The notes: a model not told the origin generated them from the sequence alone. A stretch of 64,000 bases of DNA from Clostridia bacterium (GCA_017408585.1 JAFQUJ010000016.1:45094-109093), one strand, 5' to 3'; counted from the first letter of the stretch, positions 3,299 to 64,000 are shown. Program-made: numbers and translations.

Positions 3299-3324
3299 AT
3301 GCTTCTCCTTTCCGCATCCTTTAT

Positions 3325-3353
3325 ATTTTATCATAAATTTATTATAATGTCAA
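3325..3353 (-). promoter_or_regulatory. sigma70-like promoter for the HI0933-family gene
   Basis: Minus strand reads TTGACA (3353-3348), a 17 nt spacer, then TAAAAT (3330-3325). Confidence 0.5.
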
Positions 3354-3360
3354 GAGTATA

Positions 3361-3396
3361 TTATTAAAAGGTCACTACCGAGCTTAGTAGTGACCC
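3361..3396 (-). terminator. rho-independent terminator of the ABC-F gene
   Basis: 9 bp stem GGTCACTAC/GTAGTGACC (3370-3378 / 3387-3395) followed by a T-run on the minus strand. Confidence 0.6.
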
Positions 3397-3405
3397 TTGA
3401 TTTAA

Positions 3406-5004
3406 TTAAAGCAATCCCTTTTCTCTTTTGTATTCGATAAATTGCTCATATGTTCCGCTATAATCGATTATTCCGTCCTCACGGAGCTCAATTATTCTGT
3501 TTGCTACTGTATTTACAGTTTCATAGTCATGAGATGCCAAGATTATATTGCCCTTAAAATCTCTTAGACCATTATTTACAGCGGTGATGCTTTCGAGGTC
3601 GAGATGGTTTGTCGGTTGGTCAAGAAGCAGGAAGTTTGAGCCAAAGAGCATCATTCTTGAGAACATACACCTTTGCTTTTCACCACCCGAGAGGACATTT
3701 ACCTCCTTGAAGATGCTATCACCCGAGAATAGCATTCTGCCGAGGAAGCCACGAAGATATGTTTCTGTTTGGTCCTTAGAGTATCTACGCATCCAATCAA
3801 GTATGCTATCATGGCAATTATCGAAATATGGTGAGTTGTCACGAGGGAAATAGGATCTTGAAATGCTAATGCCCCATTTAAAAGAGCCACCATCTGCCTC
3901 AGACTCCTCCATTAGCACCTTGAATAGCTCTGTTACAGCCATTTCATTGCCAAGAAGTGCTATCTTATCGCCCTTTGCAACTGTGAAGGAAACATTCCTA
4001 AATAGCGACACACCCTCGAGCGTTTTGCTCAAATCCTTGACTGTTAGAATATCCTTGCCCGCCTCTCTGTCCATATCGAAGCCGATAAACGGATATCTTC
4101 TGCTTGATGCGGGAAGCTCCTCAATTGTGAGCTTATCAAGTAGCTTTCTTCTCGAGGTTGCCTGTCTTGATTTTGATTTATTTGCGCTAAAACGAGCGAT
4201 AAAGGCTTGAAGCTCCTTAATCTTTTCCTCGTTTTTCCTGTTTTGTTGCTTTATCATTCTTTGAATTAGCTGACTGGACTCGTACCAAAACTCGTAGTTG
4301 CCGACATACATCTTGATTGCGGTATAGTCGATATCAACAATGCTTGTGCAGACATCGTTTAAAAAGTGACGGTCATGGGATACGACCAAAACCGTTCCAA
4401 AATAGTCGCTTAAAAAGTCCTCAAGCCACATAACCGCGTCTATATCAAGACCGTTTGTAGGCTCGTCGAGCAGAATTATATCGGGGTTGCCAAAAAGCGC
4501 CTGTGCCAAAAGAACCTTAACCTTTTCGCTTTCCTTTAGGCTTGACATTTGCTCGTACAAGATTTCCTCGCTAAGTCCAAGTCCTTGAATGAGCTTTGAA
4601 ACCTCACTTTCAGCCTCCCAGCCGTTCATTTCGGCAAATTCCGCCTCAAGCTCCGATGCTTTTATTCCATCCTCGTCGGTGAAGTCAGCCTTTGAATAGA
4701 GCTCCTCCTTTTCCTTCATTATGGTATAAAGGCGCTCATTTCCTTGAATTACCGTATCAAGCACTGTGAAGCTATCGTAGGCAAAGTGGTTTTGCTTTAA
4801 AACGGACATTCTAACATCACTTGGAATGCTTACATCACCCTTTGTTGGCTCTAATTCGCCACACAGGATGCGCAAAAATGTACTTTTGCCTGCGCCATTT
4901 GCTCCGATTACTCCATAGCAGTTGCCGGGAGTGAATTTGAGGTTTACATCCTTAAATAGAATTTGACCGCCAAAGTTAAAGGTCATGTTATTTACTGTTA
5001 TCAT
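3406..5004 (-). CDS. ABC-F family ATPase (YbiT/YkpA-like, two ABC domains, no TM domain)
   Basis: 532 aa. Two Walker A motifs (GANGAGKST and a second-domain equivalent) and two signature motifs (LSGGEK). The N-terminal region aligns by eye with E. coli YbiT as I recall it. Confidence 0.85.
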   Translation of the reverse strand: MITVNNMTFNFGGQILFKDVNLKFTPGNCYGVIGANGAGKSTFLRILCGELEPTKGDVSIPSDVRMSVLKQNHFAYDSFTVLDTVIQGNERLYTIMKEKEELYSKADFTDEDGIKASELEAEFAEMNGWEAESEVSKLIQGLGLSEEILYEQMSSLKESEKVKVLLAQALFGNPDIILLDEPTNGLDIDAVMWLEDFLSDYFGTVLVVSHDRHFLNDVCTSIVDIDYTAIKMYVGNYEFWYESSQLIQRMIKQQNRKNEEKIKELQAFIARFSANKSKSRQATSRRKLLDKLTIEELPASSRRYPFIGFDMDREAGKDILTVKDLSKTLEGVSLFRNVSFTVAKGDKIALLGNEMAVTELFKVLMEESEADGGSFKWGISISRSYFPRDNSPYFDNCHDSILDWMRRYSKDQTETYLRGFLGRMLFSGDSIFKEVNVLSGGEKQRCMFSRMMLFGSNFLLLDQPTNHLDLESITAVNNGLRDFKGNIILASHDYETVNTVANRIIELREDGIIDYSGTYEQFIEYKREKGLL

Positions 5005-5005
5005 T

Positions 5006-7648
5006 TTATTCTCCTAGGGTTAATATTTTTTCGACAACTCGCTCACAATTTCGCTTGTCGTGATATTTAAAAAATTCTCTTATCCTGTCAAGATAGAGTG
5101 TGTCAATTTGGCAATCGTTCTCGATGCACTTTATTATGGCATTGATTGTGTCATCAAGAGTGTATGCGACATTGCCAAAGCCATTTTTCTCGTAATCAAA
5201 GTAGCCCTCGTTATATGTGTGAGCTCCCGAGAAAAAGTGCTCTCTGTCAAATTGAGCATAGATGATTGGCTTTTCAAGATAAGCGAAATCGAACACCGCC
5301 GAGGAATAGTCGGTGATAATCAGGCTACTTCTCTTGTAATGGTCATTATAGCTTGTCTCGCAGTCAAGGCGCACATATGGGGGTGTGTCGATAAAATCGC
5401 ACATTCCTTGCATATTGGGGTGTGGTACAAGGACCATTTTATAGCCATATTTTTGTAACGCATCGGCAATTCGGCTATCGTTTATTATTGCGTTCCAAAA
5501 CCTTATATACTCGCTGTCTTGGAGCTTATCACTACTTTTCCACTTGCCTGTTGCTATATCAATATTATCGACAAGATATCTGCGCCATGTGGGCATTATT
5601 GTAATGATTTTCTCGCCTTGGCTATCAAGACGGTCAAAGCGTGGAAGCCCCGTGAGCCAAAGCTCTCTTTCGGTATAATGGTAGGGGGGAGTGTTTAAAA
5701 TCGAGTCATATTCGGGCACAGCCGAGGTCACAAAGCCTCGTATATTTTTGTTGTATTTATTTAGCCATGCGCTAAGGTCGTCCTTAATAACTCCGTGTTG
5801 AAGGAACACGAAGGGCTTTTGCGTCAAGATATCCTTATAGGGTGCTCCATAATAATCAAATGGGTTTGTCACAAAGTCCTCTGCCTGCGATGAGATTATC
5901 ACGCTTGATGCAAGGTGAAGAAGCTTGTATTTTAGAGATGCGCGATTTACCACTCTGCCTTGCCTTTTAAGGCGTGAAAAATCCTTGCCCCCTCTTATTG
6001 CGAAATAATATTTTGCGCCCTTGAATTTGATTTTATTTAGGTAGTCAAAGAGCGCCTCTCCGTTATCGTCAGCTGAGCTCAGGCGATCACTTATCAGCCA
6101 AATCGGCTTTTTACAAAACGCCTTATAAAAACGGGCGAGCTTTCTTGCGATTACCGCCTTGCGCTCGGCAAAGCCGTTTGATTTCCAAAGCTCCTTTTCA
6201 AACACATATCGGTGCTTTTTGAGCGCTTTTTTTGTTTTCGGCTCAAAAATCAAGGCGCTTTCGTCATGAGTAAGAATTGCGTTTTTAAGCTCGGCAAAGG
6301 AGCTTACATATCCCTTTTCAAGCGGGAAATGCTTGCCAAATTGAACATTATTTGAAATTATTTCTATATCTCTTGTGCAAAGCGCGAAATAGGCGGTCAC
6401 CTTATGCGTGAAATGGTCGCTTGGGATTTCGTATTCAAGGCAGACGCTTGACACTATTTCCTTGCCTAAAAGGCTTGTTTTGGCTTCATATGTGGTTTGG
6501 AGTGCCTGTATGCGTGTTCCACCCACATAAAGCGCACCCTGTGTAATTTTTGGCACATTTACAGGAGCAAGGATGCGTGCGTAAATTTTAATTTTATCGT
6601 TTTCCTGCTCGATTATTTCAAGCACATATGGTAGGCTTGAGATGGCAAGCGAGGTTCTTGGGAGAAATATATCGTCATCTTGAAAATCGAACGCCTCGTT
6701 ATGCTTTTTTGCGATTAGATAATATTTTACGCTCTCGCTCAGACTTGCCGAGTCAAGAATTGTATTATCATCTAGGAGCGAAATTATTTTATAAAGCTCG
6801 CTCTCAAAGGCTGCCACTCCCTCGTCGGTTAAGCATTCGGGCTTTTTTTGCGCCCTTATCTTCCACGCAAGGTCATACATTATCGCATTTTGAATGAATT
6901 GTGGTATTTTTTTATGCCCTTCAAGTGCGTACTCTATTATTGATTTAAAATAGCCATTAAGATGGTCTAGATACCACGAGCTTTTTTGTGGGGCGGTGGC
7001 GATAAGCGACGCCTCGCGCTTACGGTAGTTATAACGCGCCTCATTTACAATTCCGAGGCGTGGTGTGTCGATTAAAACTCGCAAAAGTGCCTCGGCGTCC
7101 TCTGAGGTTGCGAGGCTCTTAAAGGTGATTTGTCTTGCGATTTCGCTCTTTATCACGCTTGCTGTGATATGAATTTGGAACACGGGCTCTTTTTCTAAAT
7201 CTATCACTCTATTTTCGCCATTAAACTTATCGTTTAGAGGGTGTGCGCCCTCTCTTGCGCCAAAGAAAAATATAGGATAGGACACTACGCTTGTTTTCTC
7301 GTAATTTTTCTCAAAGAATGCGATTATATCGGTGTAGGTGTTTGGGCTTATAGTATCGTCGGGGTCGAGAAATGCAGTATATTTGCCCTCAACATGAGTT
7401 AGAGCCTCGTTTCTTGCGCTTGAAACTCCACCATTTTCCTTTTCGATATAGGTGATGCACTCGGGGTATTTGCCTTGATACTCTCTTATTATCTCGGCGC
7501 TATTATCACTTGAGCCATCGTTTACTATGATTAGCTGAATGCTCTCCTTGCCGATGGTTTGAGCAATAACGCTCTCTATCGCCTCGCCAATATACAAGGC
7601 GGAATTATATACGGGCATTATTACGGAAATTAGATATTTATGTTGCAT
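5006..7648 (-). CDS. bifunctional GT2 glycosyltransferase / CDP-glycerol glycerophosphotransferase (TagF/TagB-like)
   Basis: The N-terminus ISVIMPVYNSALYIGEAIESVIAQT...NDGSSD...DPDD is GT2-like. The C-terminal ~400 aa look TagF-like. Start chosen at MQHKYL (ATG 7648), which follows AAGGAGG. Confidence 0.8.
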   Translation of the reverse strand: MQHKYLISVIMPVYNSALYIGEAIESVIAQTIGKESIQLIIVNDGSSDNSAEIIREYQGKYPECITYIEKENGGVSSARNEALTHVEGKYTAFLDPDDTISPNTYTDIIAFFEKNYEKTSVVSYPIFFFGAREGAHPLNDKFNGENRVIDLEKEPVFQIHITASVIKSEIARQITFKSLATSEDAEALLRVLIDTPRLGIVNEARYNYRKREASLIATAPQKSSWYLDHLNGYFKSIIEYALEGHKKIPQFIQNAIMYDLAWKIRAQKKPECLTDEGVAAFESELYKIISLLDDNTILDSASLSESVKYYLIAKKHNEAFDFQDDDIFLPRTSLAISSLPYVLEIIEQENDKIKIYARILAPVNVPKITQGALYVGGTRIQALQTTYEAKTSLLGKEIVSSVCLEYEIPSDHFTHKVTAYFALCTRDIEIISNNVQFGKHFPLEKGYVSSFAELKNAILTHDESALIFEPKTKKALKKHRYVFEKELWKSNGFAERKAVIARKLARFYKAFCKKPIWLISDRLSSADDNGEALFDYLNKIKFKGAKYYFAIRGGKDFSRLKRQGRVVNRASLKYKLLHLASSVIISSQAEDFVTNPFDYYGAPYKDILTQKPFVFLQHGVIKDDLSAWLNKYNKNIRGFVTSAVPEYDSILNTPPYHYTERELWLTGLPRFDRLDSQGEKIITIMPTWRRYLVDNIDIATGKWKSSDKLQDSEYIRFWNAIINDSRIADALQKYGYKMVLVPHPNMQGMCDFIDTPPYVRLDCETSYNDHYKRSSLIITDYSSAVFDFAYLEKPIIYAQFDREHFFSGAHTYNEGYFDYEKNGFGNVAYTLDDTINAIIKCIENDCQIDTLYLDRIREFFKYHDKRNCERVVEKILTLGE

Positions 7649-8838: not shown

Positions 8839-8910
8839 ATTATCCCCCCCTTTTTCGTTTTCGTTAGATATATTAGCACAAAGCAATCTTTAATTCAAGA
8901 TAAAAAAGAA

Positions 8911-16069: not shown

Positions 16070-18085
16070 ATGAAAAAAAGCTTAAAAGTTGGAATTGTCG
16101 CAATGATTATTTCTCTTATTGTGACTCTGGGGCTATGGGCGTTTGGTCTATTTGTTCTTGGCGACATAATTGGCGATCAGTTGGGCGGTGTTATATTTGC
16201 GATTTTGTTCTTTGCTGTTCTCTTTTTAATGATTGTTGATTTAATTATTGGTAGCATAATAGATAGAAAATATGCGAACAAAAGCGTTGGGACAATACAT
16301 CAGCTTATTCGTGAGCGACAGGAGCGCATAAACGAGGATCTTGAAAAATCAACAAGAAAAATCCACGCCATAGCGACGCTATGCAAGGTATTTATTTTCG
16401 TTTTGACGCTTTTGTGTCATGCTCTTGCCTTATTTATTGGCGCTATGGGTCCGGAGCCTAGCATTCTTATGGCGTTTATAATTCCTGTGAATTTGAGCAT
16501 ATATGCAAAAATTGCGGTTTCATATTTTAGCTTTGAGCTTCCCGACACATATGTAACTGACGACGAATTTCCTCTTATATATGGGCTTGCTAACAAGGCT
16601 ATGAAGGAGCTTGGACTCAAGGGACGCCTTTACATCTTTCCAACAAATGATTTTGACGCATCAATTGCACAAATTAACGGTGGGTACATAATTAACCTTG
16701 GCACAAGCCTTGCAAGAGCCTCCTACGAGGACGAGCTTTATAGCATATTTTTGCACGAATTCGCACACATGTCGCAATCTACTCCAAAATCTGTTGGCTA
16801 TCACTTTATTAATCTTATCGAGGGTGAAAACGAGGGCTTTGGATTTTTCAATGTGATTTGGAGCATCTTCTTTGTCGGCTTTATGAAGCTATTCTATTTC
16901 GAGCATAATTTTTATAGAGCTCTTGCCTCTGTTCAAATTGAAGCCATGGCTGACTCTATTGTTTTAAGCAAGGGTGATGCGATAGCATATGCTAACGCCT
17001 TAGCAAAGGCATCAATACACAATAGGTTTGACAGAGTTTTCTCCGAGTTCTCCTCCGGCATTTTAAACGAGGGTGATACTATTCGTGAGGATATCGCGAC
17101 GCTATTTTATAACCAATATGCCGACACCTTTGTAAAGGTCAAGGACAAGTGGCTTGTCGAGCTTGAGGTGGAGCTTCAGCCAAGGAATGCCTCTCACCCA
17201 ATTTACAGGCTTAGACGAGATGCTCTTGGCGTTAGTGCTGACGAGGTAAATCCGAGCTTGCCCGATATCTCCTATGCTCTTGCTCTCGAGGCTGACAGGC
17301 TTTTAAGGTGGGCTGACAGCTTAACCCTTGAGCACTTCAAGAATGACTACGAGCAGATACACAAAATACATTATCTTGACCCTCTCAACATTGTAAACGC
17401 TTGGGAGGCAAACGAGCGAGCTTGCACAATTGAAGAAAGCGTCGAGATAATTCACGCACTAAGAATGCTTAACAGAAAAAGCGATGCAGAGGAGCTTTGT
17501 GACAGAATAATTGCTGAAGCGCCAAATCCAAACGCTTGCGCTCACGCTACATTTTACAAGGCGTACAGGCTTTTATCGAGAGGCGACAACTCCGGAATCG
17601 ACATTCTTTATGGACTTTGTGACACAAATCAAAACTATGCAGAGGAAGCTCTTAACCTAATTGGTGAATACTGCTGTGCAAAGGGCTTGCAGGAGCGTCT
17701 TGACGAATATCGCACAAGAGCGGTTGAAATTATTCAGCGAACGGTTGACGAGCAAGAGTTTTCGACGCTTAGCTACAAGGACAATTTAATTCATGACGAT
17801 ATGCCACAAGAGCTTATTGACAGCCATATAAGCTACATTCTTGGCGTCGGTGAAAATCGTATAAAAGAAATACATCTTGTAAAAAAGGTGACTAGCAAGG
17901 GAGATTCGACAAGTATATTCCTAGTAGATTTTCTGCCGAATACTGATTACGAGGCGGTAAATCGAATTATGAACAAGATATTCATTCATTTAGATGCATG
18001 CGAGGAGCAATATTCTCTGTTCCTTTTAGATGCGCATTACAGAAGCGTTTTACAAAAGCTAAACACCTGTGTTTACAAGGCTTAG
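16070..18085 (+). CDS. membrane-anchored putative zinc metalloprotease (HExxH) with helical-repeat C-terminal domain
   Basis: 671 aa. N-terminal TM segments, an FLHEFAHM (HExxH) motif, and an alpha-helical, TPR-like C-terminal half. Exact family not recognised. Confidence 0.5.
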   Translation: MKKSLKVGIVAMIISLIVTLGLWAFGLFVLGDIIGDQLGGVIFAILFFAVLFLMIVDLIIGSIIDRKYANKSVGTIHQLIRERQERINEDLEKSTRKIHAIATLCKVFIFVLTLLCHALALFIGAMGPEPSILMAFIIPVNLSIYAKIAVSYFSFELPDTYVTDDEFPLIYGLANKAMKELGLKGRLYIFPTNDFDASIAQINGGYIINLGTSLARASYEDELYSIFLHEFAHMSQSTPKSVGYHFINLIEGENEGFGFFNVIWSIFFVGFMKLFYFEHNFYRALASVQIEAMADSIVLSKGDAIAYANALAKASIHNRFDRVFSEFSSGILNEGDTIREDIATLFYNQYADTFVKVKDKWLVELEVELQPRNASHPIYRLRRDALGVSADEVNPSLPDISYALALEADRLLRWADSLTLEHFKNDYEQIHKIHYLDPLNIVNAWEANERACTIEESVEIIHALRMLNRKSDAEELCDRIIAEAPNPNACAHATFYKAYRLLSRGDNSGIDILYGLCDTNQNYAEEALNLIGEYCCAKGLQERLDEYRTRAVEIIQRTVDEQEFSTLSYKDNLIHDDMPQELIDSHISYILGVGENRIKEIHLVKKVTSKGDSTSIFLVDFLPNTDYEAVNRIMNKIFIHLDACEEQYSLFLLDAHYRSVLQKLNTCVYKA

Positions 18086-21932: not shown

Positions 21933-22052
21933 GCTATACGCGCAAATGGTTAAAATTTAGTTAAAGTTTTGTAAAAGCTATTGACAAGTCATTCTTATAG
22001 TGATACAATATCATACAGTTCAAATTTAAACTGTTCAAGGAGAAACTATAAC

Positions 22053-22484
22053 ATGATGACGCCATATGAGCATCTAAGAGTTGTTCAAGTAGCTTACAAC
22101 AAGGCAACTGAGACTGTTTGCAAAAAATACAAGCTTAAGCACACAGAGTTTGACATTCTTATATATTTAAGCCAATTTCCTGACAAGGCTACTGCTACCG
22201 ATATTGTAAAAAAGATGGATTTATCGAAATCTCTTGTTTCAATTTCGCTCAGACGCCTAGAGGAGCTTGGATATGTAGAGGGAGAATTTCTTGGCACTAA
22301 CCATCGTACAATTTATTTGCACTTAACCGATCGTGCAAGTGAGGTTATTGACGATGGAAATAACGCAAGAGCGAAATTTATCACCTCTATGCTTGATGGG
22401 CTTGACGAGGACGAGGTTAAAATTCTTGTTGAGCTTCTTACAAAAATCAAGAAAAATATGATGTCATACATAAAAACTATATAA
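22053..22484 (+). CDS. MarR-family transcriptional regulator
   Basis: 143 aa with a winged-helix region (TEFDILIYL...ATDIVKKMDLSKSLVSISLRRLEELGYV). ATG at 22053 follows AAGGAGA. Confidence 0.75.
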   Translation: MMTPYEHLRVVQVAYNKATETVCKKYKLKHTEFDILIYLSQFPDKATATDIVKKMDLSKSLVSISLRRLEELGYVEGEFLGTNHRTIYLHLTDRASEVIDDGNNARAKFITSMLDGLDEDEVKILVELLTKIKKNMMSYIKTI

Positions 22485-24443: not shown

Positions 24444-25322
24444 ATGAAATACGCAATTGAAAATGAATTTTTAAGGGCTGAAATCTCCGAGCTTGGTGCG
24501 GAGCTTGTTTCGCTTAAGCTAAAGGAAGACGGATGTGAATATATTTGGCAGGGTGATGAAAGGTATTGGACCGGTCATTCGCCTATTATGTTTCCTATTT
24601 GTGGAAGATTAATTGATGGTAAATATACATACAGGGGCAACACCTATGAGCTTGGCTGTCATGGCTTTGCAAGGCATAGCGCTTTTGCGCTCACGGGGGC
24701 AAAGGCTGATGAGATTACATTGAGCCTTAAATCAAGCGAGGAAACTAAAAGGGTGTATCCTTTTGACTTTGTGCTTAGCATTACCTTTTCTCTTGTTGGC
24801 AAGGCTCTAAATGTAAAATACAAGGTTGTAAATACAGATAACAAGGAGCTAATTTTCACAATTGGCGCGCACCCCGCATTCAATGTTCCACTTTCTAGCG
24901 GTGAGAGCTTTGAGGACTATTATGTAGAGTTTGACAGGAGCTGTGATGCAACTGTGCTTTCAATGTCGGAGCGTTGCTTCTGTGATGGAAATGACAAATT
25001 ATACTCACAGGGTGGCACTAAACGCATTCCACTTGACCATTCTCTGTTTAACATTGATGCGATTTTCCTTTATAATACCGCAAAGAAGGCTACTCTTGCC
25101 TCCAACAAATCAAAGAAAAGTGTAACACTTACATTTGACCAATTTAAATATCTTGGTCTATGGCACAAGCCAAAGAGCGATGCGCCATACATTTGCATTG
25201 AGCCTTGGTGTGGTTGTCCTGACTTCGAGGGAGAGATTGGAGATCTTACTAGCAAGCCAGAGATGATTCGTCTTCCTGTTGGATATTCTTATGCTAATAA
25301 GTATAAAATTGAAATAAAATAA
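24444..25322 (+). CDS. aldose 1-epimerase (galactose mutarotase-like) family protein
   Basis: 292 aa. LacX/YihR-like blocks (FPICGRL, GFARH, GAHPAFN, EPWCG). ATG at 24444 follows GGAGGTG. Confidence 0.7.
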   Translation: MKYAIENEFLRAEISELGAELVSLKLKEDGCEYIWQGDERYWTGHSPIMFPICGRLIDGKYTYRGNTYELGCHGFARHSAFALTGAKADEITLSLKSSEETKRVYPFDFVLSITFSLVGKALNVKYKVVNTDNKELIFTIGAHPAFNVPLSSGESFEDYYVEFDRSCDATVLSMSERCFCDGNDKLYSQGGTKRIPLDHSLFNIDAIFLYNTAKKATLASNKSKKSVTLTFDQFKYLGLWHKPKSDAPYICIEPWCGCPDFEGEIGDLTSKPEMIRLPVGYSYANKYKIEIK

Positions 25323-25410
25323 TTATACAACATCTACACCCATCCACCATCTATGGTGGTCCTTCCCCTCCGTTCAAAGAGGAGACTTTAATGTGTGTCA
25401 AAGACAAAAG

Positions 25411-25441
25411 AAAAACACCTTGAAAAATCAAGGTGTTTTTT
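25411..25441. terminator. bidirectional terminator (copy 1 of a thrice-repeated terminator sequence)
   Basis: AAAAACACCTTGA-aaaa-TCAAGGTGTTTTT. Near-identical copies at 27501-27529 and 29585-29616. Confidence 0.7.
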
Positions 25442-25451
25442 GTGTTTTTAA

Positions 25452-27344
25452 TTATTCCTCGTCATTTGTAGGAACGAGTGCATCAAGAGTTGTTGGAGCA
25501 AGAACCTTTTCAGCCTGCTCATAGGTTACTGTATAGAGGCTTGCGTCCTCGTAGTCAAGAGTTGATACCTTGCATGAGGTTGTTGTGTCCTGAATGAACT
25601 GAACCTCTTCGCCTTCAACATAAGCATACGCTGTGATTACAAGCTCCAGCTGTGTAAGCTCTGTTGTGGTAAAGCCACTAATTGAGAACTTGAAGTTATT
25701 ATACTCTACGCTCTCTTGCTCTATCATGATAGCGCCCTTCTTGCCTTCTGCCAAATTAACGCTTCCGTCTGCTTTCAAGAAGCGATTGCTTGCTAGGTGG
25801 GTTGGGTTTAGCATCAAGATACCGAAGGTGATATCCTTTTCGTTATGGAGATTATATAGGTCAAAGTTGTCCTTATTTACTGTCCAACCGCCTGCAATTG
25901 AGCCTGAGCCATCAATTGAGTATCCACCTGTGGTGCTGAAGATTGGATCAAGGTCTATTTTTTCGTTTGCTTGGTTACAGTTTTCTACTTGACAGAAGAT
26001 TTCGTGCAAGCCTGCGCTTGTAAAGCCCTCTGTGTAGGTTATTATATGCTTTACATTATGATCGTCTGCTACCTTTGCGATAAAGCCCTTACACTGAACG
26101 CCCTCTGCCTCGTTGTAGTTCTTGCAGTAGTTATCCTTTGTGCAATCGTAGTTTTCAAACTCGTGCTCGAGCATTGAGTTTGGTGTTTCAATGGCGCTTA
26201 GCTCCTTACCGCAGAAGCAGTTTGTTGTTACCTTTTCAAGTGAGTAACAGGTTGCTGGGACAAGATCTGCGAGTCTTGGATCTTCGAGGTGCTTTGCAAG
26301 ATCAGCTTCAGACGCACAGAATACGGCTGTTCTTGTGTTTGAATAGCTTTCAAAATCCGAGCTTGACTTATCGTTTGCGTTTGCAAAAATAATTTTTTGT
26401 GTGCTTCCCCAATATCCTGTGGAAATTGTAGTCATGTCGCCCAAAAATACGATTGTATTTTTAGGTCCGTTCTGGAAGAAATACTGATTTGGCATAGCTG
26501 TGAGTTTATCGCCAAATACTAATACATCGTTTAGATTCTTACATTCTCTACATACGCTATTGTTTGAAATGCTCGTAAGGTTTGCAGGGAAATAGTAAAT
26601 TTCCGGTTTTTCCGGAACATTCTCATATGTAAAGGTTTCGTTTACAAAATACATATTAACGCAATCATCAAAGCTTGCATTTCTTGATCCGCCGCCACCA
26701 CTTGACCATGTTTCAAGCGACTCCGAAAGGTGTACCGCACCTAAGTTCGTACATCCTGAAAAGTGAGCAACATCGTATAGCGAGGTAAAGCAGTCGGGCA
26801 TTGAGAATGCTTTAAGATTTTTACAGCCATAGAACATATATGACGGGAAGACTCTCATCGTATTGTTTTCACTAAACTTAAGTGTACACTCCTCAAGTCC
26901 TGTTGCATTTTGGAAAATGGCATTTGAAAGACTTGATATAGTATCTGGGAAGGTTATCCACTTCAATGTTGTACCGTTGCTTCCTGCATACTTTGCAACA
27001 TGAGTGATTCCGGTAGGGATATCGAAGCCCTTTATGTCTGCATAAGTATAAAGATTGCCAGCCTCCTCGGTTTTGCCAAGCTTGCTGTTGATATAGTCAA
27101 AATCCATATAAGACTCAAAAGTAGTATTATAGTTTCCTGAGCCTACGGTCGAGGTATCCTTAAACACATAGCTTACAGGACACTTAAAGCCGTCATAGAA
27201 TTCAACAATTTCGCTATCAATACATTGATATTTGGTTCTTACAGGTGCGTCGGTGTAGGTTGTAACCTCTGCACTAACAGAGATTGCAAGCACAGCGCAA
27301 AGTGCAATTACCATTACAAGAGTTAAAAGCAATTTCTTTTTCAT
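25452..27344 (-). CDS. secreted BspA-type leucine-rich-repeat protein, paralog 1 (signal peptide + LRR + Cys-rich module + conserved C-terminal domain)
   Basis: 630 aa. Signal peptide MKKKLLLTLVMVIALCAVLAISVSAE. LRR_5-like repeats (FQNATGLEECTL, FYGCKNLKAF, FSGCTNLGAV). The C-terminal ~190 aa are nearly identical to paralog 2. Confidence 0.75.
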   Translation of the reverse strand: MKKKLLLTLVMVIALCAVLAISVSAEVTTYTDAPVRTKYQCIDSEIVEFYDGFKCPVSYVFKDTSTVGSGNYNTTFESYMDFDYINSKLGKTEEAGNLYTYADIKGFDIPTGITHVAKYAGSNGTTLKWITFPDTISSLSNAIFQNATGLEECTLKFSENNTMRVFPSYMFYGCKNLKAFSMPDCFTSLYDVAHFSGCTNLGAVHLSESLETWSSGGGGSRNASFDDCVNMYFVNETFTYENVPEKPEIYYFPANLTSISNNSVCRECKNLNDVLVFGDKLTAMPNQYFFQNGPKNTIVFLGDMTTISTGYWGSTQKIIFANANDKSSSDFESYSNTRTAVFCASEADLAKHLEDPRLADLVPATCYSLEKVTTNCFCGKELSAIETPNSMLEHEFENYDCTKDNYCKNYNEAEGVQCKGFIAKVADDHNVKHIITYTEGFTSAGLHEIFCQVENCNQANEKIDLDPIFSTTGGYSIDGSGSIAGGWTVNKDNFDLYNLHNEKDITFGILMLNPTHLASNRFLKADGSVNLAEGKKGAIMIEQESVEYNNFKFSISGFTTTELTQLELVITAYAYVEGEEVQFIQDTTTSCKVSTLDYEDASLYTVTYEQAEKVLAPTTLDALVPTNDEE

Positions 27345-27358
27345 ATTTTTCTCCTTGT

Positions 27359-27380
27359 GGGGTCGAGTGGCTCGACACCC
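27359..27380 (-). promoter_or_regulatory. 5'UTR stem-loop abutting the Shine-Dalgarno of LRR gene 1
   Basis: mRNA sense: GGGUGUCGAG-ccac-UCGACCCC, then acAAGGAGAaaaauAUG. Conserved at 29447-29468. An analogous hairpin sits at 63741-63757. Confidence 0.45.
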
Positions 27381-27405
27381 ATTATATAAATATTATTGTA
27401 GCTAT

Positions 27406-27435
27406 ATTATATATCATCAAGCATTAATATGTCAA
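27406..27435 (-). promoter_or_regulatory. sigma70-like promoter of LRR gene 1
   Basis: Minus strand: TTGACA (27435-27430), 18 nt spacer, TATAAT (27411-27406). Confidence 0.6.
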
Positions 27436-27437
27436 GT

Positions 27438-27494
27438 CATTTTGCACAAAAATAAAGCCCCCCCCCCCGATTTTTGTGCAAAATGCACAAAATT
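27438..27494 (-). promoter_or_regulatory. upstream control module: 16 bp perfect inverted repeat around a G11 tract, plus a second TGTGCA/TGCACA palindrome
   Basis: + strand: CATTTTGCACAAAAAT (27438-27453), aaag, C11 (27458-27468), g, ATTTTTGTGCAAAATG (27470-27485), then CACAAAATT. TTTGTGCA-aaa-TGCACAAA forms a second palindrome. Confidence 0.6.
27458..27468. repeat. homopolymeric tract, C11 on + strand (G11 in gene orientation)
   Basis: Counted directly: 3 C at 27458-27460 plus 8 C at 27461-27468. Confidence 0.95.
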
Positions 27495-27498
27495 AAAC

Positions 27499-27530
27499 AA
27501 AAAAACACCTTGTAATCAAGGTGTTTTTTG
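27499..27530 (-). terminator. terminator of LRR gene 2 (copy 2 of the repeated terminator)
   Basis: ACACCTTG-taat-CAAGGTGT flanked by A and T runs. Confidence 0.7.
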
Positions 27531-27539
27531 TGTTTTTAA

Positions 27540-29432
27540 TTATTCCTCGTCATTTGTAGGAACGAGTGCGTCAAGAGTTGTTGGAGCAAGAACCTTTTCT
27601 GCTTGCTCGTAGGATACTGTGTAGAGGCTTGCGTCCTCGTAGTCAAGAGTTGATACCTTGCATGAGGTTGTTGTGTCTTGAATGAACTGAACCTCTTGTC
27701 CTTCAACATACGCATACGCTGTAATTACAAGCTCCAGCTGTGTAAGCTCTGTTGTAGTAAAGCCACTAATTGAGAACTTGAAGTTATTATACTCTACGCT
27801 CTCTTGCTCTATCATAATAGCGCCCTTCTTGCCTTCTGCCAAATTAACGCTTCCGTCTGCCTTCAAGAAGCGATTGCTTGCTAGGTGGGTTGGGTTTACC
27901 ATCAAAATACCGAAGGTAATATCCTTTTCGTTATGGAGATTATATAGGTCAAAGTTATCCTTATTTACTGTCCAACCGCCTGCAATTGAGCCTGAGCCAT
28001 CAATTGAGTAGCCACCTGTGGTGCTAAAGATTGGATCAAGGTCTATTGATGCGTCAAGCTGTGTGCAGTTTTCGTTTTGGCAGAATATCTTATGCAAGCC
28101 CATGCTTGTAAAGCCACTCACATAGGTCACTGTATTCTTTTCGATATGACTAAGTGCCTCGGCCTCGAGTGAAGCTCCACAATGTGCGTAATTCTTGCAC
28201 TCATTTCCCTTGGTGCAATCAAAATTTTCCTCATACTCGTGATCAAGCATTGTGTTTGGTGTTTCGCCCTCGCTAATCACAGTATTGCAGAAGCAACGGG
28301 TTACGCCCTTTTCGTTTGAGTAGCATGTAGCAGGCTCAATAGTTGAATGTTTAGGGCTTGCCATGTGCTTTGAAAGGTCGCTTTCGGAAGCGCAGAATAC
28401 GGCTGTTCTTGAATTGGTGTAACTTGCAAAATCCGCACTTGATTTGTCGTTAGCGTTTGCAAAAATTATTTTTGAAGTTTTCCAGTTGGTTGTATTTATC
28501 TCGGTCATATCTCCAAGGAATACAACCGTGCTTGTAACATTCTTGAAAAGATAGCTACCGCTTGCGGAGGTGATCTGTGTTCCGAACACCAAAACGCTGT
28601 TCAAGGAAGTGGCACTTTCAAAGGTGTTTGTGTGAATGGTGTGAAGACTTTCGGGGAAGTAGTAAATATCGGGTTTTGCAGGGGCTGTATCACTTGTAGT
28701 AAATGGTTCGCTTACAAAATATACCTTGCTGAGGTTTTGAAAGACTGCGTATCTGTTCGAGCCTGTCTTTTCAAGTATTTGAATGTTTTTCGATAGATAA
28801 ACGGGACCCAAGCTCGAGCAATCTTTAAAGAAGTTACCCTCACCTGTTATCGTGGTAATGCAGTCGGGAATGCTAAGCGCCTTTAATTTTGAGCAACCAG
28901 CGAACATCCAACCGGAAAGGGTTGTAAATTCGGTATCGGCTTCCGTATGCTCAAAAACAACCTCTTCAAGAACTGCTGAGTTTTGAAAACCGGTACTACC
29001 AATGGATGTAACGGTGTGGGGGAATGTGATTTTCTTAACCGAGCTCAAGGAGTGGGCAAATTGATCTCCAAGGGTAGTAATTCCCTCCGGAATATCAAGC
29101 TCAACAATGTTGTCAATTGTGTAATTCTTTCCCTTTTCCGTAAGGAATGAAAAGTCAAGCACTTTCTTAAGTCCAGCATTTCCGTAGGAGCCCTTATCAA
29201 CGGTTGCTTGGTCCTTGAAAATATAATGGCTTGGGCAAACAAATCCGTCATCAAACACAACATAGTCGTCAGTTGAGTTGACAAAGGTTGATTTTGCGGG
29301 CGCGTCGGGGTAGGTTGTAACCTCTAAAGCCTCGCCATCAACCGTTGTAATCGTTTTTGCACTTACGCAAAGAGCGAAAATCGAGCAAAGTACAATTACC
29401 ATTACAAGAGTTAAAAGTAATTTCTTTTTCAT
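27540..29432 (-). CDS. secreted BspA-type leucine-rich-repeat protein, paralog 2
   Basis: Start placed at MKKKLLLTLVMVIVLCSIFALCVSAK (ATG 29432, after AAGGAGA), giving 630 aa like paralog 1. The ORF-track upstream extension to 29507 would cover the conserved promoter/UTR. Confidence 0.75.
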   Translation of the reverse strand: MKKKLLLTLVMVIVLCSIFALCVSAKTITTVDGEALEVTTYPDAPAKSTFVNSTDDYVVFDDGFVCPSHYIFKDQATVDKGSYGNAGLKKVLDFSFLTEKGKNYTIDNIVELDIPEGITTLGDQFAHSLSSVKKITFPHTVTSIGSTGFQNSAVLEEVVFEHTEADTEFTTLSGWMFAGCSKLKALSIPDCITTITGEGNFFKDCSSLGPVYLSKNIQILEKTGSNRYAVFQNLSKVYFVSEPFTTSDTAPAKPDIYYFPESLHTIHTNTFESATSLNSVLVFGTQITSASGSYLFKNVTSTVVFLGDMTEINTTNWKTSKIIFANANDKSSADFASYTNSRTAVFCASESDLSKHMASPKHSTIEPATCYSNEKGVTRCFCNTVISEGETPNTMLDHEYEENFDCTKGNECKNYAHCGASLEAEALSHIEKNTVTYVSGFTSMGLHKIFCQNENCTQLDASIDLDPIFSTTGGYSIDGSGSIAGGWTVNKDNFDLYNLHNEKDITFGILMVNPTHLASNRFLKADGSVNLAEGKKGAIMIEQESVEYNNFKFSISGFTTTELTQLELVITAYAYVEGQEVQFIQDTTTSCKVSTLDYEDASLYTVSYEQAEKVLAPTTLDALVPTNDEE

Positions 29433-29492
29433 ATTTTTCTCCTTGTGGGGTCGAGTGGCTCGACGCCCATTATAAAATATTACTGTAGTTAT

Positions 29493-29521
29493 ATTATATA
29501 TTACCAAGCATTATATGTCAA
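29493..29521 (-). promoter_or_regulatory. sigma70-like promoter of LRR gene 2
   Basis: Minus strand: TTGACA (29521-29516), 17 nt spacer, TATAAT (29498-29493). Confidence 0.6.
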
Positions 29522-29544
29522 GTCATTTTGCACAAAAAATAAAG

Positions 29545-29554
29545 CCCCCCCCCC
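29545..29554. repeat. homopolymeric tract, C10 on + strand (G10 in gene orientation)
   Basis: Counted directly. Flanked by CATTTTGCACAAAAAAT and ATTTTTGTACAAAATGCACAAAATT. Confidence 0.95.
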
Positions 29555-29584
29555 GATTTTTGTACAAAATGCACAAAATTAAAC

Positions 29585-29616
29585 AAAAAGCACCTTGAAA
29601 AATCAAGGTGCTTTTG
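29585..29616 (-). terminator. terminator of the 119 aa gene (copy 3 of the repeated terminator)
   Basis: AGCACCTTGA-aaaa-TCAAGGTGCT followed by TTT. Confidence 0.65.
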
Positions 29617-29630
29617 TTATTAAGCTACAA

Positions 29631-29990
29631 TTACCATTCCTCACGCCAAGGCTTTGTGATATCCTCTTTAATTTCCGGATATCCGGCGTCCATTGCGATA
29701 TCCTCGATTATATAGCAAAGCTCCTCGCCCAGCTCGCTTTCAAGCATACAATAATCGGCATTTCTATTGATTTTATTGATAGCGAAAATGAGCTTTTTCA
29801 TTTGCTTTAAAATCTTCTCCTCGTTACCATTTTTGATTTTATTTACCGCCTTCATATATTTGATAACGAGCTTTCTTAACATCATTACATGACGAGAGCA
29901 AAATCCGCAATCATCGTCGGCATTTCTTGCCTCGATTAGTGGATCTACTATTTCATTGTCTATTCTTTTCTTATACTGCTTTATATCCAT
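29631..29990 (-). CDS. hypothetical cytoplasmic protein
   Basis: 119 aa, helical and charged. No motif recognised. Confidence 0.45.
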   Translation of the reverse strand: MDIKQYKKRIDNEIVDPLIEARNADDDCGFCSRHVMMLRKLVIKYMKAVNKIKNGNEEKILKQMKKLIFAINKINRNADYCMLESELGEELCYIIEDIAMDAGYPEIKEDITKPWREEW

Positions 29991-30001
29991 TTTTTCTCCT
30001 G

Positions 30002-31828
30002 TTATTTGCCTGCCAAAAGTGATAGGGTGATTGCCAAAATCAGCACTCCGACATCGGCAATTACAGCGCCGAGCATTGGAACAAGTCCAAGCGCGGTAAG
30101 AGCCAGCATTGACGCCTTAATAGCAAGTGAAATTATTATATTCAAGACTGCTATTCGCTTAGTACGCTTAGCAATTTTAATTACGCGAGCGACCTTTTCT
30201 ATATCGTCATCCATAATTACCACATCGCTACATTCAATCGCGCTATCAGAGCCAAGCGCTCCCATAGCGATACCGACATCAGCTCTTGCGAGCGAGGGTG
30301 TGTCGTTTATTCCATCGCCACAGTATGCGACCATTCCCTTTGAATTTGAAATAAGAAGCTCTAATACTTCCAGCTTTTGCTCCGGGTCAAGTGAATGATA
30401 ATATTCCTGTGCGCCTGTTGAGCGTGCAATTGCCTTAACCTTGGATTCCTTATCTCCGCTGATTATTATTTTATTTAATATTCCGAGCTTTGTTAGCTTT
30501 TCAAACGCGATTTTGGCGTTTGCTTTAACCTCATCACCCAAGCTAATTGAGCCTATATATCTGCCATTTAGTGATACTAAAATATTTCCATGGGCGTCCT
30601 CGGGTGCTCCTACAAATGCACGATTTCCCGCCTTGATGTGTCCGAATTTCGAGTCACATTCTATTCCAAAGCCGACGCTTTCGCTATGGTTTTTGCCCTC
30701 ATCATCTATTACGATATTGAGCTTTGATGCTTCGGAAAGTATAGCTAGCGCAATTGGATGAGTTGACTTTTGCTCTGCAATACAGACATATTTTAGAAGC
30801 TCTGTTTTATCAACTCCGGAAATCGGTTCGATTTTAGTTACATGAAGGGTGCTTTTTGTCAGCGTGCCTGTTTTATCAAAAGCGATTGATTTGATTTTAC
30901 ACAGCTTATCAATAACTGATGAGCCCTTGACCAAAGCTCCCTTTTTTGATGCATATGCAATTCCACAAAAATATGAGAGTGGCACAGAAATTACTATTGC
31001 ACAGGGGCAAGAAACAGCGAGCATTGAGAACGCCTTATATGCCCATGACATAAAGCTATAATTATCAAACAAGGGTGGAATTATAGCTACTAAAAGTGCC
31101 AAAATTATTACGATTGGGGTATAGAATTTTGAAAAAACGCTTATGAACTTTTCGCTTTTTGTCTTTCTTTCAAGTGCGTTTTCGGCAATATCTACAATTC
31201 TTTGTGCAGCGCTTGCGCCAAGGGGTCTTTTTACCCTTATCTTGAGGGGTGTGTTGCAGTTTAGGTATCCTGCGAGCACCTCGCTACCCTCTCTTACCTC
31301 GATTGGAAGGCTTTCTCCTGTGATAACAGAGGTATCTACGCTTCCCACGCTATTTACCACATCACCATCAAGTGGAATACGCTCTCCCGAGAAGACCTCG
31401 ATTATAGTGCCGACCTCGACGCTTGATGCGTTTACTATTGTACCCTCGACAAGCCTTGCCTTATCGGGACGAATGCTCGCGAGTGTTTCAAGTGAGCGAC
31501 GAGAGCTATCGGTTGCGACATCCTCGAAAATTTCGCCTGTTGTGTATAATGCCAATACCAGCACCGCCTCGAAGAACTCGCCTATTATCATAGCGCCGAG
31601 CGAGGCGACGGTCATTAAAAGCTTTTCGTCAATTTTGCCCTTCTTGAAAAGTGCTTTCAGTGCGTGGAAAATGATTGAATGCGAAATTATTCCGTATGCT
31701 ACTATATTACAAATGAGTGACATGAGCGACTCATCAAAATGAGCTAGCACGGTTGCCTCTATGAGCAATAAAATTGACAGAAGGATTTTGATTAGTCCTA
31801 TTTTATGCTCTGCAAAAATTTTTTTCAT
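30002..31828 (-). CDS. heavy-metal translocating P1B-type ATPase (Cd/Zn/Co-type), lacking an N-terminal HMA domain
   Basis: 608 aa. TM CPC motif (SCPCAIVISVP), phosphorylation site DKTGTLT, and GDGINDTP. No GMxCxxC domain. Confidence 0.85.
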   Translation of the reverse strand: MKKIFAEHKIGLIKILLSILLLIEATVLAHFDESLMSLICNIVAYGIISHSIIFHALKALFKKGKIDEKLLMTVASLGAMIIGEFFEAVLVLALYTTGEIFEDVATDSSRRSLETLASIRPDKARLVEGTIVNASSVEVGTIIEVFSGERIPLDGDVVNSVGSVDTSVITGESLPIEVREGSEVLAGYLNCNTPLKIRVKRPLGASAAQRIVDIAENALERKTKSEKFISVFSKFYTPIVIILALLVAIIPPLFDNYSFMSWAYKAFSMLAVSCPCAIVISVPLSYFCGIAYASKKGALVKGSSVIDKLCKIKSIAFDKTGTLTKSTLHVTKIEPISGVDKTELLKYVCIAEQKSTHPIALAILSEASKLNIVIDDEGKNHSESVGFGIECDSKFGHIKAGNRAFVGAPEDAHGNILVSLNGRYIGSISLGDEVKANAKIAFEKLTKLGILNKIIISGDKESKVKAIARSTGAQEYYHSLDPEQKLEVLELLISNSKGMVAYCGDGINDTPSLARADVGIAMGALGSDSAIECSDVVIMDDDIEKVARVIKIAKRTKRIAVLNIIISLAIKASMLALTALGLVPMLGAVIADVGVLILAITLSLLAGK

Positions 31829-55739: not shown

Positions 55740-55829
55740 TTAATCCCCCCCGTATTTAACAACAGATTTTACTGCTTTAGTCCAAATAGAATTAGAGCCC
55801 GCCTCTATCCACTCTAACGCTTGTCCGTT
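55740..55829 (-). pseudogene. 29-codon start-less fragment (candidate toxin C-terminal tip)
   Basis: NGQALEWIEAGSNSIWTKAVKSVVKYGGD-stop, abutting the next ATG (GATTAAATG). Confidence 0.3.
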
Positions 55830-63728: not shown

Positions 63729-63915
63729 AATTCTTCTCCTTGCAGGTAGCCCCTGCGGGCATAAAATTTTTCACATCAAATTATACCATAAAAGCAAACA
63801 CGCAAGTGTTTGTTAGCATCAAGGATGCGTTTTTCAAGCATATTGCGAAGAAAAACCTTTTAGCCGTCAATAAAATTACTGCAACAAGCTTGCCTTGTTG
63901 GTATAAAGTAATTTT

Positions 63916-63945
63916 ATTATACCATATATCGCATTTATTTGTCAA
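63916..63945 (-). promoter_or_regulatory. sigma70-like distal promoter of LRR gene 3
   Basis: Minus strand: TTGACA (63945-63940), 18 nt spacer, TGgTATAAT (TATAAT at 63921-63916). A second TGgTATAAT at 63788-63780 could be a proximal promoter. Confidence 0.5.
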
Positions 63946-63964
63946 TATGCACAATAAACAAATA

Positions 63965-63974
63965 CCCCCCCCCC
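63965..63974. repeat. homopolymeric tract, C10 on + strand (G10 in gene orientation)
   Basis: Counted directly. Flanked by ATATGCACAATAAACAAATA and GTTTTTTGTATATTTTGCACAAAAAT. The window ends at 64000. Confidence 0.95.
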
Positions 63975-64000
63975 GTTTTTTGTATATTTTGCACAAAAAT

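Follow-up and report, generated by a model that had tools for sequence, protein, structure and literature searches.

A run of eleven G residues lies upstream of the promoter of a gene coding for a secreted leucine-rich repeat (LRR) protein, gene A, on the minus strand of a stretch of 64,000 nucleotides (nt) from Clostridia bacterium (GCA_017408585.1 JAFQUJ010000016.1:45094-109093; hereafter the window, which means the whole stretch analysed), and the question raised by this locus is whether such a tract acts on the gene behind it or only fills a space in front of it. An earlier note on this DNA had read the tract as a candidate phase-variable switch of that single promoter. The observation was confirmed, and the tract is real, but it is one of three copies in the window of a promoter module that stands before a whole family of secreted LRR genes; the interpretation as a switch is partly supported, by comparative evidence between sequences that is strong. 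On balance we favour a reading in which a slippage-prone G spacer, built into a promoter cassette common to the family, would set the register between operator-like sites and the promoter and would in this way switch the genes of the family. The G tract would then probably be a mutational switch or dial for these genes.

On the minus strand, positions 27494 to 27406 read TTTTGTGCA-ttt-TGCACAAAAAT-c-G11-cttt-ATTTTTGTGCAAAATG-ac-TTGACA-18 nt-TATAAT, and the features of this module A, in the direction of transcription, are the following.

27500..27529, minus strand: intrinsic terminator of the upstream gene B, a 13-pair stem with a T-run that runs into module A
27474..27490, minus strand: palindrome of module A, with half-site 1 TTGTGCA (27490-27484), ttt and half-site 2 TGCACAA (27480-27474)
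27458..27468, minus strand: G11 tract of module A (C11 on the plus strand), which is G10 in two other samples
27443..27449, minus strand: half-site 3 TTGTGCA of module A, its start 31 base pairs (bp) from the start of half-site 2 and its end 7 nt 5' of the -35 box
27406..27435, minus strand: core promoter of gene A, with TTGACA (27435-27430), 18 nt and TATAAT (27411-27406), a 12/12 match to the consensus in the promoter scan
27359..27380, minus strand: GC-rich leader stem-loop GTCGAG-cca-CTCGAC, just 5' of the AAGGAG ribosome-binding site, identified by inspection

The G11 tract is separated by 22 nt from the -35 box, and the ATG of gene A stands at 27344, behind a leader of approximately 55 nt. 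Two perfectly complementary 16-nt arms (27485-27470 and 27453-27438) surround the tract and enclose 16 nt; folded as single-stranded DNA they gave -14.6 kcal/mol with a z-score of -5.6, and none of 200 shuffled sequences was as good. Tract, arms, spacing, promoter and leader were all found as the earlier note had described them. The terminator of gene B insulates module A from read-through. The rarity of such a run, also put forward in that note, was borne out, since the window, with a G+C content of 41%, contains just three G/C runs of at least 10 nt, where independent bases would be expected to give 0.015. All three belong to one type of module, each before a gene for a secreted protein.

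The module was searched for with the degenerate pattern ACAAAAAWC-G(6 or more)-N-TTGTGCA-N(0-8)-TTGACA, which matched the window exactly three times (modules A, B and C) against 0 matches expected. The same pattern was found at 22 sites in 7 species-representative metagenome-assembled genomes (MAGs) titled Oscillospiraceae, Eubacteriales or Clostridia bacterium, with at most 6 sites per genome; roe-deer caecum or colon is named in two of the matched record titles. Beyond the window, the module amounts to 24 further copies in at least 8 uncultured Clostridia MAG species. In 25 of the 27 copies (those with enough downstream DNA) an open reading frame (ORF) starting MKK(K/R)LL...(S/A)(V/A)SA is located approximately 60-110 nt downstream, and the proteins behind the module mostly have 536-677 amino acids, with one of 1,219 amino acids and one apparently truncated ORF of 82 amino acids. 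A phage origin of the module was rejected, the viral contigs giving 0 matches to the pattern. The surroundings in the window are those of chromosomal housekeeping, with genes for V-ATPase, topoisomerase and teichoic-acid synthesis, and tRNAs.

The alignment of 33-34 distinct modules gave one order of elements: terminator, TTGTGCA-N3-TGCACAA, G8-12, an AT-rich spacer, a third TTGTGCA, the -35 and -10 boxes of a consensus promoter of the sigma-A type, a short leader with a hairpin and a Sec signal peptide. The consensus of the 5' part reads (terminator T-run) TTTTTGTGCA-WWW-TGCACAAAAAWC, then G8-12, and that of the 3' part ATTTGTTTA-TTGTGCA-TA, TTGACA-17/18 nt-(TRTGn)TATAAT, the palindrome (half-sites 1 and 2) being placed at approximately -91 to -75 and the tract at approximately -69 to -59. 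Both halves of the palindrome are conserved at 94-100% in 31 modules with the central 3 nt free to vary, which points to a type of site typical of a dimeric DNA-binding protein. The same 7-nt half-site, conserved at 94-100%, stands on both sides of the tract, and the comparison of modules agrees with the proposal of the earlier note that a palindrome lies on the 5' side of the tract and a further half-site on its promoter side. In 34 distinct modules the G8 to G12 tract sits 18-24 nt 5' of a 12/12 -35/-10 promoter. It lies outside the core promoter, 5' of an intact TTGACA, and the spacer between the -35 and -10 boxes is constant at 17-18 nt; the promoter and terminator scan returned the module promoters as 12/12 matches insulated by terminators. 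The two other modules of the window have the following features.

29586..29615, minus strand: intrinsic terminator of the gene for a 119-amino-acid protein, 5' of module B, from the terminator scan
29560..29576, minus strand: palindrome of module B, TTGTGCA-ttt-TGTACAA, half-site 2 with one mismatch
29545..29554, minus strand: G10 tract of module B, of this length in 9 samples and shortened to G9 in another
29529..29539, minus strand: T6 run of module B (29539-29534) overlapping half-site 3 TTGTGCA (29535-29529); the sample with a G9 tract has T7 here
29493..29521, minus strand: core promoter of gene B, TTGACA, 17 nt, TATAAT, a 12/12 match
63980..63996, minus strand: palindrome of module C, TTGTGCA-aaa-TATACAA, half-site 2 degenerate
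63965..63974, minus strand: G10 tract of module C; both the orthologue L006 and an ENA contig from the same strain have G9
63916..63954, minus strand: half-site 3 and promoter of module C, with TTGTGCA (63954-63948), TTGACA (63945-63940), 18 nt and TATGG-TATAAT, the -10 box at 63921-63916

The earlier note had held that spacing matters, and this stood for one distance and failed for another: half-sites 2 and 3, measured from start to start, are 31 bp apart in 28 of the 34 distinct modules, whereas the distance from the tract to the -35 box is not the constrained one. The gap between half-site 3 and the -35 box is 2, 3 or 7 nt depending on the copy, and the 31-bp register is independent both of this gap and of whether the tract is G9, G10 or G11. 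Within the promoter class of the window, tract and T run give equal sums, with G11+T5 in copy A, G10+T6 in copy B and G9+T7 in copy B of SRR24653752; this last combination needs two separate indels, in homopolymers separated by CTTTA. In the main class, G10+18, G9+19 and G8+20 all come to 28 nt between the palindrome and the -35 box. The six off-register modules stand at 30, 32 or 33 bp, that is 1-2 bp off. Five of them have a relative with identical or near-identical flanks in which the G count alone differs, and the sixth (L022, G8) has an additional T in the spacer too. A distance of 31 bp is about three helical turns at approximately 10.3 bp per turn, and half-sites 1 and 2 are about one turn apart, which would bring all three half-sites onto the same face of the helix. 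The compensating indels, together with the conserved register, suggest that this spacing matters for fitness.

We compared the lengths of the tracts between strains, as consensus sequences of short-read assemblies, by retrieving the same locus from other samples through exact-protein look-ups of the neighbouring genes. Copy A has G11 in ERZ28019354, the source strain of the window, and in ERZ28653896, and it has G10 in ERZ27256748 and ERZ28654059. Besides the indel in the G tract, the contig of ERZ28654059 (L042) shows 0 mismatches in 6.2 kb and that of ERZ27256748 (L027) 3 single-nucleotide polymorphisms in 7.1 kb. Copy B is G10 in nine of ten samples, and the tenth (L036, SRR24653752) has G9 with T7, its only two indels. 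For copy C, the G10 of the window stands against G9 in an ENA contig from the same strain, which matches it over 7.2 kb at 99.99% identity; the orthologue L006, at 92% identity, has G9 as well. Each tract of the window thus differs by one G, between assemblies that are 98.7-100% identical. Over the strain-aligned regions, length variation was seen in all three G tracts and, among the A/T runs of at least 6 nt, in 1 of 44 (Fisher p = 2.5e-4), the control runs being shorter than the G tracts (6-7 nt) and the single one that varies being the compensating T run of copy B. Judged by these alignments, the G tract is a preferred indel site among near-identical strains. The expectation of the earlier note, that the tract is prone to changes in length, agrees with this comparison, and across the modules of related genomes the length is not invariant either (G8-12). 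What has been found, with lengths taken from short-read consensus, are two of the features of a contingency locus: a homopolymer of mutable length beside a promoter, and length differences between strains above the background of the A/T runs.

Six lineages were picked by protein similarity alone (35-56% identity), and among them only L060 carries the full module, with G12. In L052 and L058 the promoter is recognisably homologous and has no G tract, L049 and L063 have ordinary promoters, and the lineage of L055-57 has no G tract but carries, 3' of the promoter and 5' of the ribosome-binding site, an array of (CAGA)n. The G tract as a universal trait of the protein family was rejected, five of these six lineages lacking it. 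Because homologous promoters without a tract exist in the sister lineages L052 and L058, the tract appears to be an addition that is dispensable for promoter function; as far as these lineages allow a judgement, it is a clade-specific addition to an older promoter architecture. The (CAGA)n array belongs to a family member of 56% identity in another species (L055 9800-9875, L057 56-123, L056 3-50), with a TTGACA-17-GATAAT promoter followed by the repeats; (CAGA)19 versus (CAGA)17 between two samples is the sole difference in 3.0 kb, and the contig of a third sample starts inside the array, with at least 12 units.

Other variants of the module were observed. L003 (approximately 4100-4180, minus strand, with its gene at 3191-4036) has the full module with an interrupted tract, GGAGGGGGC, and a total spacing that is still 28. 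The gene codes for a protein of 281 amino acids with a CFI-box-CTERM domain (NF041770) and no signal peptide, so the cassette also stands before genes other than those for LRR proteins, and in this copy it may have become 'locked' naturally. In L005, L015, L016, L019, L022 and L010, purine-rich imperfect repeats (GAGTGAAAAGTGAAGAGTGAAGAG...) stand 20-60 nt 5' of the palindrome together with a fourth TTGTGCA half-site; these belong to the RGIG3858 and JAZNYH01 genomes, where they take the place of the terminator seen in other genomes.

The gene content of the A/B locus also differs between strains, some of which have one LRR gene and not two. In L031 and L034 (3350-3359 in both) the module is chimeric, with a 5' part of the B type and a promoter and leader of the A type, and one gene is lost, as would be expected from a deletion by recombination between modules. 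L028 (5437-5446) carries a different allele, of 665 amino acids, at the A/B locus (window 27400-29600). Some contigs of independent assemblies end inside the tracts or at most 3 nt from them, namely L027 at its position 1 (window 29549) and L042 at its end (window 27471), and the start of L056 lies inside the CAGA array. Such breaks at repeats are suggestive, being compatible with heterogeneity of length within a sample; poor coverage of poly-G or graph breaks induced by repeats would also explain them. The scan of metagenomes with the search pattern, made for strain diversity, gave just 2 contig matches.

In the mechanism that we propose, a putative DNA-binding protein would bind co-operatively to the palindrome and to the proximal half-site, from a single side of the helix; alternatively, the contact would be made by the alpha subunits of RNA polymerase instead of a dedicated regulator. 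Slipped-strand mispairing would add or remove one G, rotate the sites by approximately 34 degrees and shift them by 3.4 Angstrom, and the altered register would change the repression or activation of an intrinsically strong promoter. Each gene of the family would in this manner get its own heritable and reversible expression state and would switch independently. Register 31 would be the common state, either ON or OFF, and 30, 32 and 33 the alternative states. A repressor is slightly likelier than an activator because the core promoter is near-perfect, and with a repressor the copies in register, which are the majority, would be silent, leaving expression to the 6 of 34 that are out of register. 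In the hunt for the regulator, the palindrome was found outside intact modules just twice in 463 kb of retrieved DNA, once in the interrupted module L003 and once as a second palindrome approximately 200 nt 5' of a module (L024). The gene of the L003 module was ruled out as the regulator, as its CFI-box-CTERM product is not a transcription factor. The motif scan of the window gave no half-site match for the nearby MarR gene (21981-22484). The spacing of the palindrome is presumably unlike that of the Rex, CRP/FNR and PlcR boxes.

Several points weigh against a switch. The search pattern demanded at least 6 G, which overestimates the share of modules with a tract, and the interrupted copy L003 exists. 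The tract lengths compare consensus sequences between samples, and one-base differences in G10-11 runs between short-read assemblies could include consensus errors. Copy B keeps G10 in nine of ten samples and 82% of the modules keep one register, a stability that looks greater than that of classic contingency loci and that also fits plain purifying selection on a fixed spacer. Finally, the core promoter is so near to the consensus that an element at -60 might alter its output only modestly. It is a tentative proposal, somewhat short of an even chance in our judgement, that the cassette makes up a genome-wide contingency system in a clade of uncultured gut Clostridia, in which at least 6 secreted LRR (and other) genes per genome would carry the operator/G-tract/operator arrangement, one putative regulator would read the 31-bp register, each gene would go ON or OFF stochastically and independently of the others, and sister species would use other repeats, (CAGA)n among them, on paralogues.

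The main rival is a tract that serves as a fixed spacer or recognition element under conventional regulation, where selection holds the 31 bp and the few changes of length come from errors of assembly or from drift that is mildly deleterious. We consider this unlikely, although it is well served by the single register of 28 of the 34 modules and by the constancy of copy B in nine of ten samples; the compensating changes also show long-term selection for one spacing, and the interrupted copy GGAGGGGGC retains the total of 28. It leaves unexplained why, at 41% G+C, more than 30 paralogues in at least 8 species have kept an unstable G8-12 tract, though promoters without a tract work in sister lineages. 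Nor does it account for differences in 3 of 3 tracts between assemblies otherwise 99.9-100% identical against 1 of 44 A/T runs, which is the compensating one, and the compensated G9/T7 pair is unlikely as a double sequencing error. An artefact of sequencing or assembly throughout, such as poly-G from two-colour chemistry, would fit the breaks of several contigs in the tract or right beside it (L027, L042) and is barely credible to us, since the tract is found at the same internal position, between unique flanks, in dozens of independent ENA, NCBI, JGI and Logan assemblies made with different assemblers.

The tract could also act as a rheostat independent of any factor, of the type described for sabA in Helicobacter pylori (PMC4081817), its length shifting the geometry of the DNA and the alignment of UP-like DNA with the alpha subunits so that the output is graded and no dedicated regulator is needed. 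The 18-22 nt between tract and -35 box are indeed AT-rich and lie at the position of an UP element. We nevertheless regard this as improbable, because the best-conserved positions are the three TTGTGCA/TGCACAA half-sites with a free palindrome centre, the signature of a dimeric protein and not of A-tract phasing, the tract stands 18-22 nt from the -35 box and does not adjoin it, and the conserved distance runs between half-sites and not to the -35 box. We give very little credence to the inverted repeat itself as the functional unit, whether a cruciform or RNA hairpin with the G run in its loop or the recombinase sites of an invertible or recombining element. The perfect 16-nt arms of copy A, with their low z-score (-5.6), speak for it, as does the recombination of modules with each other seen in the chimeric L031 and L034, with one gene lost. 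However, a perfect inverted repeat enclosing the tract is found in copies A and B of this species only; most other modules have imperfect arms, and there the upstream palindrome folds by itself at the lowest energy, so that the placement of the G tract in the loop of a perfect hairpin, as the earlier note had it, is not conserved. Between the arms there are 16 nt without a promoter, the hairpin is not followed by a T-run, and the neighbouring genes code for an ATPase, the 119-amino-acid protein, an epimerase and a radical-SAM enzyme, with no recombinase gene adjacent. An inverton was rejected on the same grounds, no promoter-bearing segment of 100-400 bp lying between the arms. The Rfam scan of 25000-30200 gave sub-threshold chance matches only, and a single G10-12 run cannot make an intramolecular G-quadruplex.

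If the G tract is taken as a switch, the closest known logic would be that of meningococcal nadA, where NadR operators flank a TAAA tract at approximately -55 to -85 and the repeat number alters operator spacing and expression (PMC2791445). In both cases the repeat is 5' of the core promoter and flanked by sites, operator-like ones here, and the target of nadA regulation is of the adhesin type, secreted or at the surface (PMC2791445). The differences are that a homopolymer in a family-wide cassette is found here and a tetranucleotide before a single gene there, that the regulators NadR (MarR family) and IHF are known there whereas the present module is known from sequence alone, and that nadA belongs to a Gram-negative pathogen and the module to uncultured gut Clostridia. 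At the level of a family, the closest analogue appears to be Bordetella fim2, fim3, fimX and fimN, which share a 'fim box' and a C-stretch inside the core promoter region (PMC1891110). There too a small gene family shares a promoter element with a G/C homopolymer whose length sets the distance between the regulator region and the core, and the genes switch independently (PMC1891110), as is proposed for the module. Unlike the C-stretch, which lies between the activator site and the -10 box of BvgA-dependent promoters, the G tract lies 18-22 nt 5' of an intact -35 box in front of a near-consensus core. The analogy of the earlier note with Bordetella fim holds as a related logic, but nadA is closer, and fim and the contingency loci in coding regions are more distant.

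In H. pylori sabA, a T tract upstream of the -35 box alters the angular alignment of upstream elements with a periodicity of approximately 10 bp (PMC4081817). The homopolymer is 5' of the -35 box in both systems, but the T/A tract of sabA adjoins that box and works with UP-like A-boxes and alpha subunits and no known factor, whereas the G tract lies between palindromic half-sites, 18-24 nt from the -35 box, and the conserved upstream elements are the palindrome and not A-boxes. In Treponema pallidum, the promoters of the paralogous putative surface-protein genes tpr and of tp0126 hold a poly-G of 7-12 nt that varies within isolates and affects reporter output (PMC7864442). The poly-G in promoters of a paralogous family is a common trait, but there the tract overlaps the -10 box and start site (tprL, tprE/G/J) or lies in the -35/-10 spacer (tp0126) (PMC7864442), a position unlike that found here. 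Many BspA-like LRR genes, with phase variation by simple repeats detected from metagenomic reads, are found in Candidatus Mycoplasma girerdii (PMC5476646), where, unlike here, mostly dinucleotide repeats within or near the genes cause frameshifts (PMC5476646). By analogy, then, the module resembles nadA and fim in logic and differs in position from the fim, sabA and tpr types, and its lineage and gene family would be new for such a system.

Promoter repeats that switch adhesin-like genes are textbook knowledge in a few Gram-negative pathogens and in mycoplasmas. In Mycoplasma hyorhinis vlp, a conserved cassette of promoter and signal peptide carries a homopolymer, a poly-A between the -35 and -10 boxes. 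To our knowledge, phase variation in commensal anaerobic Firmicutes has so far been ascribed mainly to invertible DNA, and we know of essentially no description of switching by promoter repeats in the uncultured Clostridia that dominate animal guts. We found no paper in the open-access literature on this module or on any promoter-repeat system in rumen or gut Clostridia, and the statement of the earlier note that the module is not a described element stands to that extent. If the proposal is right, these commensals would diversify their repertoire of secreted or surface LRR proteins by slippage, a combinatorial variation of the secretome or surface by simple repeats in commensal anaerobic Firmicutes, with a bearing on colonisation, on evasion of immunity or phages and on strain-level heterogeneity in metagenomes. 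The near-consensus promoter, the three identical half-sites and the strict 31-bp register would make the module suitable for tests of helical phasing across a mutable spacer. For metagenomics, the tracts would be sites at which biology, and not technique, makes assemblies break or consensus sequences disagree.

The genes behind the three modules of the window are the following.

25452..27344, minus strand: gene A, a secreted BspA-type LRR protein of 630 amino acids with the signal peptide MKKKLLLTLVMVIALCAVLAISVSA, a variable N-terminal LRR half and a conserved C-terminal domain of approximately 170 amino acids
27540..29432, minus strand: gene B, a secreted LRR_5 protein of 630 amino acids
62118..63728, minus strand: gene C, a secreted protein of 536 amino acids with the signal peptide of the family and without a Pfam match

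The earlier note had described the product of gene A as a surface protein of the BspA LRR type. Its LRR nature held, as proteins A and B match Pfam LRR_5 (BspA type) with E = 2.8e-15 and E = 1.7e-14, respectively, and so did its export, protein A having a Sec-type signal peptide; protein A also matches PDB 4gt6, 'cell surface protein'. Proteins A, B and C all lack an LPXTG motif, a transmembrane helix at the C terminus and any known domain for wall binding, and the sequences thus support secretion of these proteins and lend no support to attachment at the surface. The Pfam search found no LRR_5 match in protein C. Proteins A and B are 59% identical overall, with the last approximately 170 amino acids nearly identical and the LRR halves at only about 45-50%, and protein C has in common with them the signal peptide and a C-terminal domain at only about 24% identity; conservation is therefore far higher in the promoter cassette than in the proteins behind it. 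More than 230 LRR_5 homologues of protein A were found, all in uncultured Clostridia. An ORF of 671 amino acids at 16070-18085 was rejected as a member of the family, to which it is unrelated. The C-terminal 170 codons or so of gene A (25452-25960) and of gene B (27540-28050) have no Pfam, NCBIfam or PDB sequence match, and the domain could be an anchor particular to this family, kept uniform by gene conversion.

Most leaders of the family have a short GC-rich stem-loop (GTCGAG-cca-CTCGAC or GCGAG-ggcta-CTCGC) a few nt 5' of AAGGAG, as at 27359-27380 and 29446-29467 in the window, at approximately 4050-4070 in L003 and at many other sites, with no Rfam match. It could be a 5' hairpin that stabilises the mRNA or a translational element.

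The leader of gene C contains a unit of 136 nt (63791-63926, minus strand) that starts with the -10 box, TATGGTATAAT. The window has a single copy of this unit and the ENA contig from the same strain a tandem pair (L061, approximately 7090-7340), and the unit is absent from the orthologue L006; it puts approximately 136 or 272 nt between the promoter of module C and the original leader and duplicates the -10 box. Shorter G runs were also observed in the window, two G7 runs on the minus strand (8844-8850 and 55745-55751) that occupy the Shine-Dalgarno position 5-6 nt before an ATG (aaaaaGGGGGGGataatATG and atacGGGGGGGattaaATG), the first of them preceding a gene of the AzlC family.

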